Source of the DNA: a virus | Lineage: Duplodnaviria; Caudoviricetes | Reading direction: 5' to 3' (one strand) | Virus record (IMG/VR): IMGVR_UViG_3300033067_001837 | Coordinates: 1-64,000 of that record | Length of the DNA stretch: 64,000 nucleotides | Shown: piece by piece, positions 2,785 through 14,066 of the stretch | Layout: every line of letters starts with the position of its first letter | Position numbering within the stretch: the stretch's first letter is position 1 | The notes under the pieces: model-generated | The model's input: only the letters and a program-made list of their open reading frames with translations | The model's database searches: none | What the model was told of the DNA's origin: nothing | Made by a program: the position numbers and the translations under genes

Positions 2785-3544
2785 TTTTCGGGCCTTGAGT
2801 GGTTAAGGTGGATTGGGTGGTGGTTGCGTCGATTTCGTCTTCCCATCTCCGGTTGCTTAACCAGCGAACGGGATCAGGCCAAGGGTTGAAAAACGCTCCC
2901 AAGGCTTGCTTGGTTTCTTTGTCCTTCGCCTGGTTAATGATGGCGTCGAGTATTGTTTCCACCAAATCGGGATTGGGATTCAGTTTGTCCCATGCTTTTC
3001 TTGCGTCCTGCTTACCAACTTTTTTCGGATAGCGAACCCAGAACGCGGTCTCAAACACATCATCCTCACGTTTGCGTGAGGTTTTATGTTCTTTTTCTTC
3101 TCTGTTCTTCTCTTCTCTTATCTTCTCTTTATCTAGCGTTCTAATTTGTTCTTCCGCGTTCTCTTTCGTTTCCGTGCGTTCGCTTGCGTTCGCTTGCGTT
3201 CGCTTGCGTTCTCTCCAAGCTTTTGCCCGTTCGGCGGAACCGTCCTCGCGTCGTGGTTGCCGGATTTCCCATGCCGCCAACCGCCCATCGACAATCATAC
3301 CTTTGGCAGTCATCGCATCCATGATGGAGCGGACAACATCATCATCAACATCGAGAGCAACAGCTATGGTTTCTACGTCAAAACGGGAAACGTCGCCGCG
3401 ATTCTCTGCTTGGCTGGCATGTTCTAGCAAAGCCGCCCATACCGCAATGACAGCTATCCGACTATGAGAGGACTTTCTGGAAATCAAAACCAACTTAGGG
3501 TCGGTAACTGTCCCATGATACCATCGTAACCATTCGATACTCAT
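2648..3544 (-). CDS. Phage replication initiator (replisome organizer / O-like)
   Basis: MSIEWLRWYHGTVTDPK N-terminus, charged linker, FWVRYPKKVGKQDARKAW and WLSNRRWEDE C-terminal motifs; GGAGG before ATG 3544. Confidence 0.75.
   Translation of the reverse strand: MSIEWLRWYHGTVTDPKLVLISRKSSHSRIAVIAVWAALLEHASQAENRGDVSRFDVETIAVALDVDDDVVRSIMDAMTAKGMIVDGRLAAWEIRQPRREDGSAERAKAWRERKRTQANASERTETKENAEEQIRTLDKEKIREEKNREEKEHKTSRKREDDVFETAFWVRYPKKVGKQDARKAWDKLNPNPDLVETILDAIINQAKDKETKQALGAFFNPWPDPVRWLSNRRWEDEIDATTTQSTLTTQGPKNGRETVGQIQARTDAAFKARFQRENEASQAICTERDISHLGHRVT
3175..3211. repeat. 10-bp tandem repeat (TGCGTTCGCT x3.7), candidate origin iterons
   Basis: Perfect repeats inside the initiator gene next to a pyrimidine/purine-skewed tract. 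Confidence 0.6.
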
Positions 3545-3678
3545 AGCCTCCACCCCTCTATCAGCTTCCCGCCTTTTGATAAGTTGCATGATTTACAAGC
3601 GGTCGTTAGGTTATCCATGTTGTTGCTACCGTCTTTGCAGAGCGGGATGATGTGGTCACTATTGAACCAATCTTTCAT
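3541..3678 (-). CDS. Minimal or truncated HNH endonuclease (45 aa)
   Basis: MKDWFNSDHIIPLCKDGSNNMDNLTTACKSCNLSKGGKLIEGWRL; GAGG RBS; stop overlaps initiator ATG. Confidence 0.7.
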   Translation of the reverse strand: MKDWFNSDHIIPLCKDGSNNMDNLTTACKSCNLSKGGKLIEGWRL

Positions 3679-3906
3679 CGTTCAATCCTCAGTTTTTGCA
3701 GGCCGCAGGGCCGTTTCGCTGCTTTGGGGGCCAGCATTACCGGGAGTTGAGAAGGGGAAGGGTTGCCTAAGCGGATGAGATCATGTAGAATTCCGTTATG
3801 CTCTATGAGCATGTTACGGATCTTCACTGGTGCCTATCCTTCTTGCATAAGGTAGTGCTGGTGCTGGCCAGGATTAGGGTTAGCGGCCCATCCTGGCGCA
3901 ATGTGA

Positions 3907-3935
3907 AGTCTACTATCTTGTTTGGTAGAAGTCCA
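3907..3935 (-). promoter_or_regulatory. Sigma70-like promoter with palindromic operator upstream of replication genes
   Basis: TGGACT-17-TAGACT on - strand; operator CTACTAT-N5-TTGGTAG at 3910-3928. Confidence 0.6.
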
Positions 3936-4110
3936 CAGGACATGTGCAAAAATATAAAAGCCTCATCACTGGGGCTTTTTTCTTTTAGGGGTTATCACAT
4001 TCAGGAACGGTGCGGGAGTCGGGGTTTGCGATTGAGCCTCCGCTATCGACGAGGTCGGCCCAACAAAGGGATTGTGCCTACGTTGCTACTTATTTCAGAA
4101 GGCCCTTTAG

Positions 4111-8688: not shown

Positions 8689-8855
8689 AATTCACAAACG
8701 TATCGATTAATAGTCGTAATGGGCCATGTCCGTTCGTGCTGTTCGAACGAACGATATAAGCAGGCACCCATCAAGGGATTAAGTGGGAGGGGCCGGTGTT
8801 CCCAGTGCTGGCAGGTTTCGCAGCGGGGGTTCTTGGCCCAGGTCGGAGACTCCAT
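8670..8855 (-). CDS. Small Cys-rich hypothetical protein
   Basis: MESPTWAKNPRCETCQHW...GAC...VCELW; ATG overlaps helicase TGA. Confidence 0.55.
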   Translation of the reverse strand: MESPTWAKNPRCETCQHWEHRPLPLNPLMGACLYRSFEQHERTWPITTINRYVCELWLKKL

Positions 8856-11800
8856 CAGCGATAACGCTCTCCGGTGACGGCATGGGTGATGGGGTCTAGT
8901 TCCAGGCGATGAACGGCGCGAGTCACTTGGATGTACTTCAAATTCCACTCTTCATTCGGGCCGATGAAGTGAGTATTCCCGTCCTCATCGGTTTCGACCT
9001 GAATGCGGGTGGAGTCGTCAGCGATCACGACTTGGTCGTGCTGTAATCCTTTGCTGTTCCATCCGTCAAAGCCGTTTTGAATAAAACGACTGCCTTCAGG
9101 TACTGTGATGCAAATTGTTTTGCTTCTCGACTTTTTAATCGAGACAATAGGATCGTAATGCCACATGATTCGTTCTGCTAAAAATGCTCCACACAGATCG
9201 TGGTCGATTTTCGCAAGAATTTCATCGGCCTTATATCTGCTGATTCTTAATACTATTTTTATGTTGTAATGATCCGCATTAGTAATAAAAGGACGGATAG
9301 ATTCAAGCTCTTGCAGGGTTATAGGAACCCAGTCATTTGATCTGCTAACCGATTTTTGCGTAGCCAAACGGCTGTTTTTCCAGCTACTAACAAATCCTAT
9401 AGATCGATAAAATGTTTTCAAATTATTACCATAAATATATATGGTAAATATTTGAAAACCATTAACTTCCCTATCTTTAAGGGTTGATATAATACCAAAT
9501 CGCAATAGCATGACCTGTACAGTTTCGGCTATTGATTGGTATTTTGTTTCAAAATGAATGTGGTCAACATTTCCTTTTTTTAAGTTTACGGTTCCGTCCT
9601 CAAACAAACCACGCAAGAACGCCGACTGTACCGTCATAGGTGAATACAAAATCTCTATTGGAATTGACTTGTTTTTTGGGCAAACCCCCACAAACAATTT
9701 CAACCATTTAGAAAGGTAGACAGAAGAAACGTCATATCCTGGCGTTCCTAGATTTTCACAGTAATTAGCATCATAGTTAAACAACTTTTTAACTAAAAAT
9801 TTAAACCGTTCATTGACATCCATATGACTTTTTACCACCCTAAATCCTTTATGATAAACAGTCCCGTCTGCGACCATTAACCCAAGAAACTCACCAAAAT
9901 CTTCATTCATTACAGCAGGAACTGGATAAATTATTGCGCGTTTATCAATTTCACCGCTGTACTTAGGAAGTGTTGGGTAGACTGTTGAATTAATCACCAA
10001 ACCGACCCTTAAACGCAGTAAATCCCCTATACACAAATGTTCGGCGTTGATTCTAACTTGTTGAGTACCATCCCAAGCCGTCATGCCATGGTTGGCGGTA
10101 ACTTCGATGTGATAACCTTTTTTTGTCGTTACAATAAATGTCTCGCTTTCCTCTTGCGTGAATTTATCGACATACATCTTTACCCCGTCCGGTGTTGCTA
10201 TTTTCCCTTGATCGGAAATCTCTTTAATCGGTACAAGACCATTTGGCGTTTCCACTAACGTATCGGGATGAACGCAGCGGTGCGCAGTACTTAGAATTAC
10301 CTGCGCTTTTTCTATCGGTACTTCACCCGCCTTTTTTAACTTCTCGCAAATGACCGGCAACTCTTTGTCGTAGTCCTTCGTAAGTTGTACATAGCGAAAC
10401 AGGTCAGCGTTATATTTTGCTTCCTGCAACACGGTATTCCAGTCCTCGAAAGGGCGAATCTCCGGGTGAGTCACTTTATCGCGGTCGTCAATATAGACCC
10501 CGTAGACGCTTTCAGCGCGATGGATCGCATCTTTCAACTTACCAATCACATGCATCGGTTGCTGACAGTGGGTCGCTGATATTGCACCCTCAAACAGTGC
10601 GGCGTTGGTGCGACTCAAAACCGCATAGGGTTGAGTACGATCCACGGGGCCGATACTGGATTCAATTTGCGGGTGTCCCTTCATCATCGGTAGACCCGGA
10701 TATGCGCCCTGCAAGATCGCATTGCCGACATCGACAATCTCGATTCCAGATCGATAGTTTTGGGTAAGATAGCAGACGCGGGCAGGAAAATCTTTCATTG
10801 CATCAACGGCTCCACGAAAGCCATAGATGGCTTGTTGCGGGTCGCCGACGATAACGATCTGGCATTTTTGCCGATTAATAATATCCATCATGCAAGCGTT
10901 CGAGTCTTGGCAATTCTTCACCAGGACGCCTCCAGCAAAATAAGCGCCGGATTCTACAGAGAGGGTATAAACGAACACAGGTGCAACGCCGCTGCTGTTG
11001 CATCCACCAGGACGGTCTGGTTCGCACATCTCAACACCAACCACCCGCGAGCCGTGAGTGCAGCGGTTTTCTTCGCATCCCGGATTCGCCCTTTTGGATT
11101 CCGATGCGAACCCCCATCCACTTCGATAGCTATTTTCAGTAGGCGCGAAGCAATGTCGATCTTGTAGCAGGTAGGCAATCCGGGAGGTGTGGGCCGTCCA
11201 TTCGACTCGGCAACACCGAGGCTCCATTGCCCATCGGGCCGCAACTGAGTGAGTTCCTGATAAAGCATCTGTTCGCACAGGGTCGGCCCATGCCCGTTGC
11301 CGCCGCGAATCTTGAAAGTGTTCCCACGACTCTTGTGAGTCGCTGATATTTTCTCCCGAACATCTGTTCGCTTCGCTGGATTGGGTATCTCTGTTCGCAC
11401 CACCTTCATCCGCCGACTGATTTTCTCCCGGCGCTGCTGTTCCGCTTCCGGTGTCATGTTGGCGACCCGCCATACCGATCCGCATTTCCGGGAGCAAGTT
11501 TTGTATTCCTTCGACTTTAGGGTTCCACACACCAGACAAGGTGTCCCCGACTTGGAGTGTTCCGGCTGCTTTCCAACCGGAGTCTTGAACCCAAACGGGA
11601 TGATTTGCGGTGCAAACAAACTCGCCTGAATCATGCAGAATCCTGAATAATGGGTTTTGAGTAGGGGTTTTATACGCAGCCGTCACCGGGCTATAGATCA
11701 ACGTCTTACCGCCATCCTGGCTGGATAAAACGCGCCAACGCTTTGAAGGGTTTGCGGCGATAATTTCGATAAGTACCGACCCGCTGTCGGTCTCAACGTA

Positions 11801-13681
11801 AGTTCCGGCAGGGAAACATTCATCCTGCATCAAGTACTTAACATCAGTCAGTACCGGCTGTCGCAACTGCCATGCCTTGAAATAAGCGTCATGCTGCATC
11901 GGGAACGGGTGCCCCACGTCCCAGATCGCATCCAGGAACTGCTGGGCATAACCGTGAACGGCGCGGATATAAGCCTGGTGCCAAGCGTCCGCCAGCTTAG
12001 GTAACTGAGTTGCCTGCCACCGTTGCGTCGATTCCGAGGCATCATACGGGTGGGTTTTGGCGTGCTCGTTATTCAGATGCCGTTCAAACCACTCCAGCGG
12101 GTAATCACTATCCCAACAGTGACGGAGGGTGATGTCAGGGTCTGCGGAGTAAAAGTATCGGTGGAGTCCTTTCATTGCCGCATAGGCCACCTGTTCCTTG
12201 GAAATATCGGAGACGCCTTCGACAGCAAACTCCCGCACGATTCGCCAATTCGGCCAGGTCTCGTTTAGCGTGCTGCGTTTCGGGTGTTGGCCCATTTCCA
12301 TTGCTCGGTAAGCGCGGGAGTGGCCGGTGGTGCAGCGAGTTTTGTCTTTCGGGAAACGCTCCACGGCTTCATCGGCATTGCGCTTATTGAAGCACCACAT
12401 TTCTCCAGGGCCGTCGCCGAGGTGAGCCAGGTAGACCAGGGTAGCGGTATTATGCGTAGGAATACAACCATTTGTCAGAAAAATATGGTCTGGTGATCCT
12501 ACAGAAATACAGGTTGCCTCTGCTGGCTCAACAGGAGTTATAGACCTTATTGCTCTAAACGGAGGATGCTGCGCTGGCTTCATTGACTGAAATTTTCTTT
12601 TCAGTCTAAACGGAATGAATTGCGCTGGCAGCTTAATATACAGCCGATACGATAATTTGCATCGCGTAGGCTTTTCGGATATGGTAGCAGTACCACCAAG
12701 GCTATGAACAATAAACTGTACTTCATTAGCCATTTGCTTACTGGTGGTGGTGTACTCTACAGCAGAGCCAGATACACTTCCGTCTGTATCAAACAATCCT
12801 TGTAGTACAGCCAAACGATCTTCAACGGAAGAAAATATGTAACTTGGCGGAATAAACTTCTCATGCGAGCGCAAACCACGGATTTTAAGTTGATCTAACG
12901 CTTTTGATAACGGATTAAAAAGACCCCTATGTCCCGGTATGGTTTTATGAATACAAGTAAGTCTATAGTCATATTTCCCGGCCTTATTTGTGATCATTCC
13001 GATCTGCGCGATAATATCCCGCACCGCAAAAAGAATCTGATCGTCGGCAGTGCTAAATGTAACGCTTTTGCCACTGATACCGCCATCACCAAGCAACACA
13101 CCAAACAACCAAGGGTCGATTGGCAATCCATCAAACAAGGATTCGTTGTTTATAAAAAAATTTACTGGCTTCGTCATAGGCATAAACCAGTACGAACGAG
13201 TGCCATCCCTTGATTTTGCTTTTGAGCCAGCCATTGTGCGGGTCTTTTCAGCAAGTTCAGATGTGGTTTTGATTAAAAATTTATCGCCGCCGTCACGTAA
13301 ACGATGATCTGAGCGATAGACTTTCCAACGATGATCTGCGTCGGCAATGACGTGAGTTTTGTCAGAAAACTCAATATCGTACAATGATCTAACTCCTTGT
13401 GGATAAACGCCTGTAACTGGATAGGCATTGCCGTCACTTCCAATTACAAGATCGTTGACTGATAACTCAGAAATAGGCTTATAGCCAAACGGAGTCATTA
13501 CTGGTTGATCATTTCTTAGCGCTTTCCCAGTGCCTGCGAAGGCATTGATGCACAGGTTCTCACCTTTTAAAAAGTGCTGGCCGATGACCTGCTGCTCCTG
13601 GGTCGCGATGAATTGCGGCACCGGGGCCGGTTTGATCAATGGAGTCGCTTGATGCTTGGAACGGCGAGCGGCTTTAGGCAT
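8855..13681 (-). CDS. UvrD/Rep-like SF1 helicase with three inteins (about 540 aa spliced)
   Basis: NAFAGTGK/T, QDE/CQD, VGDPQQAIYGFRGA, LTQNYRS, STAHR/SKGL, YIQVTRA; ATG 13681 preferred over TTG 13693. Confidence 0.92.
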   Translation of the reverse strand: MPKAARRSKHQATPLIKPAPVPQFIATQEQQVIGQHFLKGENLCINAFAGTGKALRNDQPVMTPFGYKPISELSVNDLVIGSDGNAYPVTGVYPQGVRSLYDIEFSDKTHVIADADHRWKVYRSDHRLRDGGDKFLIKTTSELAEKTRTMAGSKAKSRDGTRSYWFMPMTKPVNFFINNESLFDGLPIDPWLFGVLLGDGGISGKSVTFSTADDQILFAVRDIIAQIGMITNKAGKYDYRLTCIHKTIPGHRGLFNPLSKALDQLKIRGLRSHEKFIPPSYIFSSVEDRLAVLQGLFDTDGSVSGSAVEYTTTSKQMANEVQFIVHSLGGTATISEKPTRCKLSYRLYIKLPAQFIPFRLKRKFQSMKPAQHPPFRAIRSITPVEPAEATCISVGSPDHIFLTNGCIPTHNTATLVYLAHLGDGPGEMWCFNKRNADEAVERFPKDKTRCTTGHSRAYRAMEMGQHPKRSTLNETWPNWRIVREFAVEGVSDISKEQVAYAAMKGLHRYFYSADPDITLRHCWDSDYPLEWFERHLNNEHAKTHPYDASESTQRWQATQLPKLADAWHQAYIRAVHGYAQQFLDAIWDVGHPFPMQHDAYFKAWQLRQPVLTDVKYLMQDECFPAGTYVETDSGSVLIEIIAANPSKRWRVLSSQDGGKTLIYSPVTAAYKTPTQNPLFRILHDSGEFVCTANHPVWVQDSGWKAAGTLQVGDTLSGVWNPKVEGIQNLLPEMRIGMAGRQHDTGSGTAAPGENQSADEGGANRDTQSSEANRCSGENISDSQESWEHFQDSRRQRAWADPVRTDALSGTHSVAARWAMEPRCCRVEWTAHTSRIAYLLQDRHCFAPTENSYRSGWGFASESKRANPGCEENRCTHGSRVVGVEMCEPDRPGGCNSSGVAPVFVYTLSVESGAYFAGGVLVKNCQDSNACMMDIINRQKCQIVIVGDPQQAIYGFRGAVDAMKDFPARVCYLTQNYRSGIEIVDVGNAILQGAYPGLPMMKGHPQIESSIGPVDRTQPYAVLSRTNAALFEGAISATHCQQPMHVIGKLKDAIHRAESVYGVYIDDRDKVTHPEIRPFEDWNTVLQEAKYNADLFRYVQLTKDYDKELPVICEKLKKAGEVPIEKAQVILSTAHRCVHPDTLVETPNGLVPIKEISDQGKIATPDGVKMYVDKFTQEESETFIVTTKKGYHIEVTANHGMTAWDGTQQVRINAEHLCIGDLLRLRVGLVINSTVYPTLPKYSGEIDKRAIIYPVPAVMNEDFGEFLGLMVADGTVYHKGFRVVKSHMDVNERFKFLVKKLFNYDANYCENLGTPGYDVSSVYLSKWLKLFVGVCPKNKSIPIEILYSPMTVQSAFLRGLFEDGTVNLKKGNVDHIHFETKYQSIAETVQVMLLRFGIISTLKDREVNGFQIFTIYIYGNNLKTFYRSIGFVSSWKNSRLATQKSVSRSNDWVPITLQELESIRPFITNADHYNIKIVLRISRYKADEILAKIDHDLCGAFLAERIMWHYDPIVSIKKSRSKTICITVPEGSRFIQNGFDGWNSKGLQHDQVVIADDSTRIQVETDEDGNTHFIGPNEEWNLKYIQVTRAVHRLELDPITHAVTGERYR
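9056..10276 (-). mobile_element. Intein (407 aa, LAGLIDADG) in helicase motif V
   Basis: CVHPDTLVETPNG, VTANH, GLMVADG, GLFEDG, TICITV...GFDGWN/S. Confidence 0.88.
10913..11818 (-). mobile_element. Intein (302 aa) in Walker B with out-of-frame endonuclease
   Basis: CFPAGTYV, CTANHPVW, VYTLSVESGAYFAGGVLVKN/C. Confidence 0.88.
10954..11634 (-). CDS. Overprinted DUF559/Vsr-like PD-(D/E)XK homing endonuclease inside intein
   Basis: CLVC...CSRKC, REKISATHK (NUMOD3-like), YKIDIA...IAIEVDGGSH...RDAKKTAALTARGWLVLR; +1 frame relative to helicase. Confidence 0.85.
   Translation of the reverse strand: MIQASLFAPQIIPFGFKTPVGKQPEHSKSGTPCLVCGTLKSKEYKTCSRKCGSVWRVANMTPEAEQQRREKISRRMKVVRTEIPNPAKRTDVREKISATHKSRGNTFKIRGGNGHGPTLCEQMLYQELTQLRPDGQWSLGVAESNGRPTPPGLPTCYKIDIASRLLKIAIEVDGGSHRNPKGRIRDAKKTAALTARGWLVLRCANQTVLVDATAAALHLCSFIPSL
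12449..13522 (-). mobile_element. Class 3 intein (358 aa, LAGLIDADG) in Walker A
   Basis: Ala1 (ALRNDQPV), DHRW, ATCISV, PTHN/T give the W-C-T signature; GVLLGDG and GLFDTDG. Confidence 0.88.
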
Positions 13682-13739
13682 GGGGTCTACCAATGTGGTT
13701 GGTAAATGCAGGCAAATTTAGGCTTCGTTGGAGTGCATC

Positions 13740-14066
13740 TTAAAACAGCATTCCCTTCCCCATTAAAAAATCGACATCTTCTTCCAAATCGCTGATATGA
13801 ATGCCGCGATCATAGACGCCGATGTTTATCCATCCTTTCCACTTTTCCGTCATCACCGATTCAGGAGTTGCGACGGGCAGGCAGCGCACGGATACACTGT
13901 AACCCTTGGGAGTCGGGCGAATAATGACGCGCACAGCAGAAGAGGTGCCGATAGCCCGACGAATTTTGCGGGCAACGACTAATGCGCTAATTCCAATTTC
14001 GGTTTCAGTTGACATAATGTTCCAAAAAAAATGCAGGCGTAATGCCTGCCAAAACTTAACAACCAA
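13740..14066 (-). CDS. Hypothetical protein (start probably ATG 14015)
   Basis: First gene of leftward unit, downstream of promoter at about 14078-14108. Confidence 0.55.
   Translation of the reverse strand: MVVKFWQALRLHFFWNIMSTETEIGISALVVARKIRRAIGTSSAVRVIIRPTPKGYSVSVRCLPVATPESVMTEKWKGWINIGVYDRGIHISDLEEDVDFLMGKGMLF

Follow-up and report, generated by a model that had tools for sequence, protein, structure and literature searches.

We analysed positions 1 to 64,000 (64,000 nt, hereafter the window) of the Caudoviricetes record IMGVR_UViG_3300033067_001837, a virus record of 110,582 bp that is complete by CheckV. The window encodes on its minus strand a UvrD-like helicase precursor with three inteins (Table 1), and the second of these, intein 2, holds an entire nuclease gene in the +1 frame of its own coding sequence. 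We consider it very likely that intein 2 is a mobile intein whose DNA carries two overprinted genes, with frame 0 encoding a splicing intein and the +1 frame a free, internally initiated homing endonuclease of the EDxHD/Vsr-like type. As the endonuclease is a separate +1 ORF (open reading frame), its production would be uncoupled from splicing. An earlier reading of the letters alone (the original prediction) had proposed just such an overprinted and uncoupled endonuclease, and the proposal was borne out by the nested arrangement in 92 of 98 related loci, by the avoidance of stop codons, by a switch in substitution periodicity, by two separate structures and by assemblies free of insertions and deletions (indels).

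Two open frames on one strand

The start of the nuclease ORF lies 2059 nt from that of the helicase ORF on the same strand (13693-11634 = 2059 = 3x686+1), which places the two frames at an offset of +1. As first noticed in the original prediction, the helicase and nuclease frames both stay open over 681 nt; the third frame contains 7 stops in the same stretch.

The boundaries of intein 2 were set by its class 1 intein motifs (Cys1, Thr70-x-x-His73, Asn302 and Cys+1) together with an exact 302-aa gap in intein-less homologues. The codons for Cys1, Asn302 and Cys+1 are at 11816-11818, 10913-10915 and 10910-10912 respectively, and the block B motif T70-A-N-H73 (TANH; 11600-11611) is invariant in the alignment of the intein family. 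The nearest database relative of the helicase, P0002 (546 aa), is intein-less, with 50% identity over the searched segment and a clean gap at each intein. Because P0002 aligned across the site of intein 2 reads ...IDE|YQD..., this intein lies inside helicase motif II. In P0002, P0003 and P0005 the gap corresponds to exactly the 302 aa of intein 2, between DE and xQD.

The Pfam PT-HINT match to intein 2 was weak (24.2 bits, below the cut-off of 27.7). The AlphaFold2 (AF2) model of the intein frame nevertheless has a HINT fold, in which residues 1-99 and 251-302 form beta strands with a predicted local distance difference test score (pLDDT) mostly >80. The stretch between them had been described as about 190 aa without stops or recognisable motifs; it is indeed open and featureless, but in the AF2 model it is shorter, ~150 aa (residues 100-250). 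This linker is what the nuclease gene encodes when read in the helicase frame. It could not be aligned across relatives except for an LLQ(D/N)RH motif (LLQDRH), which is the shadow, in the intein frame, of the invariant nuclease motif PTCYKIDI. A PHROGs search with the intein frame returned only a spurious weak match to a head protein.

The predicted +1 product is a Vsr-like nuclease

The product of the +1 frame matched Pfam DUF559 with 36.6 bits (cut-off 20.6), and the same family was matched by all 12 family members tested. An AlphaFold model of the nuclease was built on 12 family members and compared with known structures by VIA-align. Model residues ~113-226 aligned with the DUF559 protein 3hrl (Z 12.4, root-mean-square deviation 1.9 A over 91 residues), with the catalytic domain of I-Bth0305I (3r3p; Z 11.4, 2.9 A over 94 residues) and with Escherichia coli Vsr (1cw0; Z 10.7). 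A search of the family profile against the sequences in the PDB also found 3hrl (3e-9) and 3r3p (0.009). Foldseek on the whole nuclease model gave weak E-values only (best 4e-3), and PHROGs assigned the nuclease only to a family of unknown function. Asp160, Glu171, His177, Asp186 and Lys188/189 are invariant across the family and Asp173 is nearly so; the window nuclease has all of them, and by alignment they are the putative catalytic residues. More widely, each of the 22 residues invariant in the family is present in the window nuclease (22/22).

Upstream of the catalytic domain are a conserved helical region (aa 49-102, with three conserved helices) and a CxxC...CxxxC segment, and the first residues of the protein form a leader with pLDDT <50. 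Of the Zn-finger, NUMOD3-like and DUF559/Vsr-like parts originally assigned to this protein, the last is supported by both Pfam and VIA-align. The Zn-finger stands as a zinc-ribbon-like segment, for which the profile search gave only a weak treble-clef match (DUF2116, E = 0.1).

Different selection acts on the two frames

A stop codon can arise in the helicase frame only when a nuclease codon ending in T precedes an AAN, AGN or GAN codon. In the window nuclease, none of the 47 codons before AAN, AGN or GAN ends in T, and 44 of the 178 before other codons do. The nested relatives show the same bias, with T-ending codons in 20 of 5628 cases (0.4%) before AAN, AGN or GAN compared with 25% before other codons; free-standing and split copies of the nuclease show no avoidance (34.3% compared with 34.5% elsewhere). 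When the synonymous codons of the window nuclease were permuted, a mean of 9 stops appeared in the helicase frame and only 5 of 100,000 trials gave none (P = 5e-5); a direct binomial estimate for the stop avoidance in the window is 1.6e-6. The openness of both frames is not due to chance and is kept by selection.

The substitution pattern was analysed as sums over 17 diverged locus pairs. In the flanks (intein ends and exteins), substitutions at host codon positions 1, 2 and 3 numbered 434, 291 and 1021 respectively, and in the core of the overlap they numbered 1043, 569 and 569. Host position 1, which is nuclease position 3, was the highest within the overlap in all 17 pairs. Thus the nuclease protein is the constrained product here, and the helicase frame is constrained only to stay open. 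Of the few variants listed in contigs of the close relatives of the window, four of the five in the nuclease core are on nuclease third positions. The variants listed for the N-terminal stretch of the nuclease, where it overlaps block B, are on helicase third positions, and therefore that stretch is governed by the intein frame.

The +1 arrangement is conserved in a large family

Related loci were collected from three GenBank phages (tblastn), from IMG/VR (92 loci, by protein and family-profile scans, among at least 277 matches that exist) and from three metagenome-assembled genome (MAG) contigs. The last came from a scan of genome contigs with a single pattern that reached only these three short contigs and says little on cellular genomes. 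The frame relation is conserved in most of the collection: 92 of the 98 related loci have a long host ORF that contains, in its +1 frame, a nuclease with ~30-43% identity. One further locus (L020) is cut by the contig end and would bring the nested loci to 93. An in-frame, +2 or antisense nuclease was found in none of the 98.

The nested host ORFs are DEAH-type, SNF2-type and UvrD-type helicases carrying an intein of the form CF..GT...HN|C/S, mostly directly after the DE of motif II; in one of them (L099) the junction, DE|...|CQD, is identical to that of the window. Vibrio phage CP-T1 gp10 (L001), Pseudomonas phage MR14 gp44 (L002) and Vibrio phage 1.194.O NVP1194O_69 (L003) share the +1 offset. 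Their GenBank records show a single helicase or 'coil containing' coding sequence, in which both the intein and the nested nuclease frame of 246-263 aa are unannotated.

Other states of the same nuclease were found among the relatives. Three loci (L006 1513-3370, L008 2809-4573 and L043 3355-5623) have a free-standing nuclease gene just upstream of a helicase gene, with the nuclease 3' end overlapping the helicase start; stop avoidance in the -1 frame is absent from these. In two loci (L054 2579-4990 and L088 2417-4903) the intein is split: stops in the overlap break the helicase frame, and the nuclease ORF, still in the +1 register, separates the N half from the C half. At one locus (L025 2805-5065) the nuclease frame also carries the N-terminal part of the helicase, whereas the C-terminal part keeps to the usual host frame; this is either a one-base assembly indel or a different fused or split arrangement. 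Free-standing, contiguous overprinted and split states all occur among the relatives with the same frame relation.

We put forward, as a proposal for and against which we see about equal grounds, that one of the largest phage intein families (at least 277 IMG/VR matches, almost none of them annotated) has the +1-overprinted EDxHD intein as its standard form and targets motif II of many unrelated superfamily 1 (SF1) and SF2 helicases. This form may be a living intermediate between free-standing genes beside helicases, contiguous overprinted inteins and the fractured genes of split inteins, with the +1 register favoured because synonymous choices in the nuclease can avoid all stops in the helicase frame.

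At a few loci the junctions are other than the helicase DE motif and the host protein is different (GIDICW|CF...HN|CEEAQS in L058 and L059, FEGCDV|CF...HN|CWVEEA in L050), which hints at extein switching.

Predicted expression of the nuclease

The only candidate start of the nuclease in the window is the ATG at 11634, within the overlap with intein block B. Shine-Dalgarno-like motifs were found at 29 of 80 nuclease starts compared with 10.8% of control ATGs in the same host ORFs (p = 2e-9). The simplest reading of these start regions is that the nuclease would be translated by internal initiation on the helicase mRNA. The original prediction had left the choice between internal initiation and frameshifting; the enrichment of Shine-Dalgarno-like motifs and the ATG close to the zinc ribbon in most relatives favour the former.

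In several relatives, among them the three GenBank phage loci (L001-L003), the intein has a conserved acidic stretch immediately ahead of the overlap (DDEV in L001), and its codons also spell the Shine-Dalgarno-like motif (GAGG or GGAGG) of the nuclease. These bases would thus have two roles, as intein codons and as a predicted ribosome-binding site.

Independent assemblies and signs of mobility

Metagenome contigs from four public runs in three studies were compared with the window over 8800-13750. One run contained an identical 110.6-kb contig, which is probably the source of the window, and a second run of the same study showed no difference from the window. Relatives that differ by ~5-15% came from two further studies, of runoff and of lake water, and span both junctions of intein 2 with zero inserted or deleted letters; within these contigs the intein itself is ~90-95% identical, again with zero indels. 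No compensating assembly frameshift was thus found, and since the independent assemblies are indel-free, a frameshift of that kind as the origin of the +1 frame is removed.

The same contigs showed an abrupt change at the C-terminal junction. In the runoff and lake-water relatives, similarity to the window stops within a few bases of this junction, and the next 30 nt, the whole of the small sample that each contig offers, differ at 13 and 16 positions (43-53%). These 30 nt encode the same extein motif (DSNGCMTNI and TNPCVANIV compared with DSNACMMDI in the window). In the intein part of the lake-water contig, 12 of 225 positions are different. Conservation is thus much higher in the intein than in the extein next to it, a pattern suggestive of homing or transfer between diverged alleles. 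Two loci from one metagenome (L058 and L059; ~3200-4060) gave a similar picture, as they are only ~0.5% different across the nuclease and the C-terminal part of the intein and ~6-7% different over the helicase gene and flanks outside, which suggests a recent transfer of the element.

An IMG/VR search for close relatives of the window N-extein found none, and therefore the presence or absence of inteins among close helicase alleles is visible only through the metagenome contigs. A blastn search of the region against GenBank phages gave zero matches.

Proposed mechanism and alternatives

Taken together, we propose the following scheme. In frame 0 the helicase mRNA would be translated straight through the 302-aa intein, of which aa 1-99 and aa 251-302 are predicted to fold as a HINT domain joined by the ~150-aa unstructured linker. 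Splicing would then remove the intein, rejoin DE-CQD and restore helicase motif II. In the +1 frame, ribosomes would start at the internal AGGA-N6-ATG (11634) on the same mRNA and make a free 226-aa endonuclease, laid out as an unconstrained leader, a putative zinc ribbon, a helical region that may bind DNA and the Vsr-like catalytic domain. The presumed targets of this enzyme are helicase alleles without the intein, which it would cut close to the motif II codons; repair would copy the intein together with the nuclease gene into the cut allele. Selection in the overlap acts on the nuclease protein, and on the helicase frame only for freedom from stops, through avoidance of T-ending nuclease codons before AAN, AGN or GAN.

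Several observations weigh against this scheme. Of the splicing blocks, which had been described as normal, Cys1, TxxH, Asn302 and Cys+1 are present, but the penultimate residue of intein 2 is Lys (VLVKN) and not the usual His. The relatives have VHN at this place in most cases, and SN or GN in ~10%. Inteins commonly, though not necessarily, have His as the penultimate residue of block G. In the window nuclease, Gly140 and Cys203 stand where >=90% of the relatives have Glu and Phe respectively. The NUMOD3-like label remains unconfirmed, because none of the 12 family members had a match to a Pfam NUMOD family at E <= 1. The window ATG is 32 codons upstream of the zinc ribbon, compared with 2-12 codons in most relatives. 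No sigma-70-like promoter was found on the minus strand upstream of the nuclease start, where the two promoter-like hits equal the expectation from shuffled sequence, and the predicted RNA fold around the start is unremarkable (z = 0.36). The transfer signal at the C-terminal junction, finally, comes from the short stretch per contig given above.

Some of these observations are what would be expected if the nuclease, and perhaps homing, were already decaying in this phage, which would leave an ORF that looks intact but is a relic, in an element maintained only by the continued splicing of its intein. The substitutions at the near-invariant Glu and Phe positions, the displaced start, the penultimate Lys and the lack of a NUMOD match all fit such decay. 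However, the full set of invariant residues, including the D/E/D/H/D/K set, is retained, the ORF is stop-free with a confident model, the variants in the nuclease core fall mostly (4/5) on nuclease third positions, and the intein is far more conserved than the adjoining extein in the contigs of the relatives. We therefore regard decay as unlikely, although it is the most serious of the alternatives.

Less probable still is that the nuclease is made by +1 ribosomal frameshifting from the intein frame, giving either a fusion of N-extein, N-intein and nuclease or, with two shifts, an effectively in-frame enzyme. The lack of a start codon close to the zinc ribbon in the window, the opening of the +1 ORF inside block B and the lack of an upstream promoter are all compatible with a shift. 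On the other hand, most relatives do have an ATG at that short distance from the zinc ribbon, with Shine-Dalgarno-like motifs enriched at the starts, and the nuclease is a gene of its own in the split-intein and free-standing relatives. Furthermore, frame 0 would need no openness if ribosomes left it, yet it is stop-free in 92 loci.

It is very improbable that the insert is a tolerated, in-frame, non-splicing insertion that conceals an endonuclease, as the ShiLan domain does in actinophage methylases. The subthreshold Pfam HINT matches and the penultimate Lys would be in keeping with this, but the insert has Cys1, TxxH, the terminal Asn and the +1 Cys, the HINT strands are modelled with confidence at both ends, and two relatives are split exactly like split inteins; an unspliced 302 aa inside the catalytic DE-xQD motif would, moreover, be disruptive. 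Finally, we give almost no credence to an assembly or sequencing artefact, in which two compensating indels disguise an ordinary in-frame endonuclease, as the same +1 offset occurs in 92 independent loci from many samples, the stop avoidance is specific to the helicase frame, and the contigs of four runs from three studies have zero inserted or deleted letters.

Relation to known systems

The original prediction described out-of-frame intein endonucleases as known only from rare recent reports, which agrees with the literature. An out-of-frame intein endonuclease was reportedly first proposed, for dnaX, by Gorbalenya in 1998. The non-canonical inteins of actinobacteriophages contain antisense LAGLIDADG, antisense Vsr-like and frame-3 endonuclease VII-like enzymes (bioRxiv 10.1101/2025.01.02.630785). 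Like intein 2, they are contiguous, with a centre without recognisable fold and a separate overlapping endonuclease ORF, and their endonucleases are kin to free-standing phage enzymes and show signs of ongoing transfer. However, their Vsr-like enzymes are antisense and their same-strand case is the frame-3 endonuclease VII-like enzyme, whereas the window has a same-strand +1 Vsr-like/EDxHD enzyme. They occupy genes for DNA polymerase, minor capsid protein, terminase and thymidylate synthase, whereas intein 2 sits in helicase motif II and belongs to a much larger family.

In the cyanobacterial dnaX intein, a LAGLIDADG endonuclease lies in the +2 frame under frame-specific selection, and its proposed origin is a secondary invasion of a mini-intein (bioRxiv 10.64898/2026.09.14.751524). 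It resembles intein 2 in the same-strand overlap, the purifying selection on the endonuclease frame and the relaxed intein frame, and differs from it in the LAGLIDADG type of the enzyme, the +2 register, the host gene and its occurrence in cellular cyanobacteria.

Endonucleases of the Vsr-like (EDxHD) type have been described in three settings, namely as free-standing genes, within group I introns and in association with split inteins (PMC2677866, PMC3239194). In the fractured genes, a free-standing Vsr-like endonuclease gene lies between the halves of a split intein (Dassa et al. 2009, PMC2677866). These share with intein 2 the Vsr-like family, the location in phage DNA-metabolism genes and the overlap of the nuclease 3' end with the downstream intein part, and two of our loci (L054 and L088) have exactly this split form. 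In contrast, the intein in the window is contiguous and predicted to be cis-splicing, because the intein frame has no stops, and its nuclease is fully overprinted and not placed between two genes. The prototype of the EDxHD family, I-Bth0305I, comes from a group I intron of recA and carries NUMOD2 and helix-turn-helix modules (Taylor et al. 2011, PMC3239194; PDB 3r3p). It also has a C-terminal Vsr-like catalytic domain preceded by an N-terminal DNA-binding region. The window protein, by contrast, is encoded inside an intein; it has a zinc ribbon and matched none of the NUMOD profiles. The ShiLan domain is likewise an insertion without stops in the host frame that conceals an out-of-frame endonuclease ORF, but it has no splicing domain and its nuclease is of the HNH type in frame 3, whereas the overlap in the window is flanked by a complete HINT domain.

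None of the papers that our literature search retrieved describes a contiguous intein of helicase motif II that is overprinted on the same strand, at +1, by an EDxHD gene. The layout principle is already published, and the same-strand +1 EDxHD helicase family is a new variation on it that is real, selected, widespread and largely unannotated. The gain is therefore one of breadth and mechanism and not of a new concept. An apparently domain-less intein centre can conceal a complete selected gene, and the nested nuclease is missed by standard gene callers and GenBank records alike (CP-T1 gp10, MR14 gp44 and NVP1194O_69). The family also provides a clean natural example of dual coding with a different measurable constraint on each frame, and it links the contiguous, split and free-standing forms of one endonuclease family, which bears on the origin of split inteins and of intein endonucleases. 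Of practical use may be the HINT domains that tolerate a 150-aa disordered insert, together with a set of Vsr-like endonucleases whose presumed targets are helicase motif II sequences.

The helicase precursor and its other inteins

The three inteins account for 1067 of the 1612 residues of the helicase precursor, and their positions are listed in Table 1 with those of the parts of intein 2 and the nuclease.

Table 1. Features of the helicase precursor, its inteins and the overprinted nuclease gene (window positions; aa numbering of the respective protein)
Feature	Residues	Position	Strand	Remarks
Helicase precursor ORF	1612 aa	8855..13693	-	UvrD-like SF1 helicase; PF00580 match; three inteins; mature protein ~545 aa
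Intein 1	aa 58-415	12449-13522	-	In Walker A motif; Ala start; looks class-3-like (W/C/T)
Intein 2	aa 626-927	10913..11818	-	302 aa; helicase motif II, between DE and CQD
Intein 3	aa 1140-1546	9056-10276	-	In-frame LAGLIDADG_3 (Pfam 9e-32); unusual end GWN|S
N-terminal HINT part of intein 2	aa 1-99	11522..11818	-	Blocks A and B; pLDDT 82-96, beta strands; conserved in alignment
Intein-frame linker	aa 100-250	11069..11521	-	Open; pLDDT 34-40, no secondary structure; not conserved
C-terminal HINT part of intein 2	aa 251-302	10913..11068	-	Blocks F and G; pLDDT mostly 75-94, beta strands; ends VLVKN
Homing endonuclease ORF	226 aa	10954..11634	-	+1 frame; stop 10954-10956; Pfam DUF559; AF2 mean pLDDT 80.6
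AGGA Shine-Dalgarno-like motif		11641..11644	-	6 nt upstream of nuclease ATG (11632-11634); putative function
Zinc-ribbon-like CxxC...CxxxC segment	aa 33-52	11479..11538	-	pLDDT 83-88; cysteine pattern in most relatives
Vsr-like (EDxHD/DUF559) catalytic domain	aa 113-226	10957..11298	-	D160, E171, D173, H177, D186, K188/K189

The runoff-metagenome contigs of the other study also bear on intein 1. In these, window position 12438 is joined to 13523 through 10 other letters; they are a related helicase allele without intein 1 and with intein 2.

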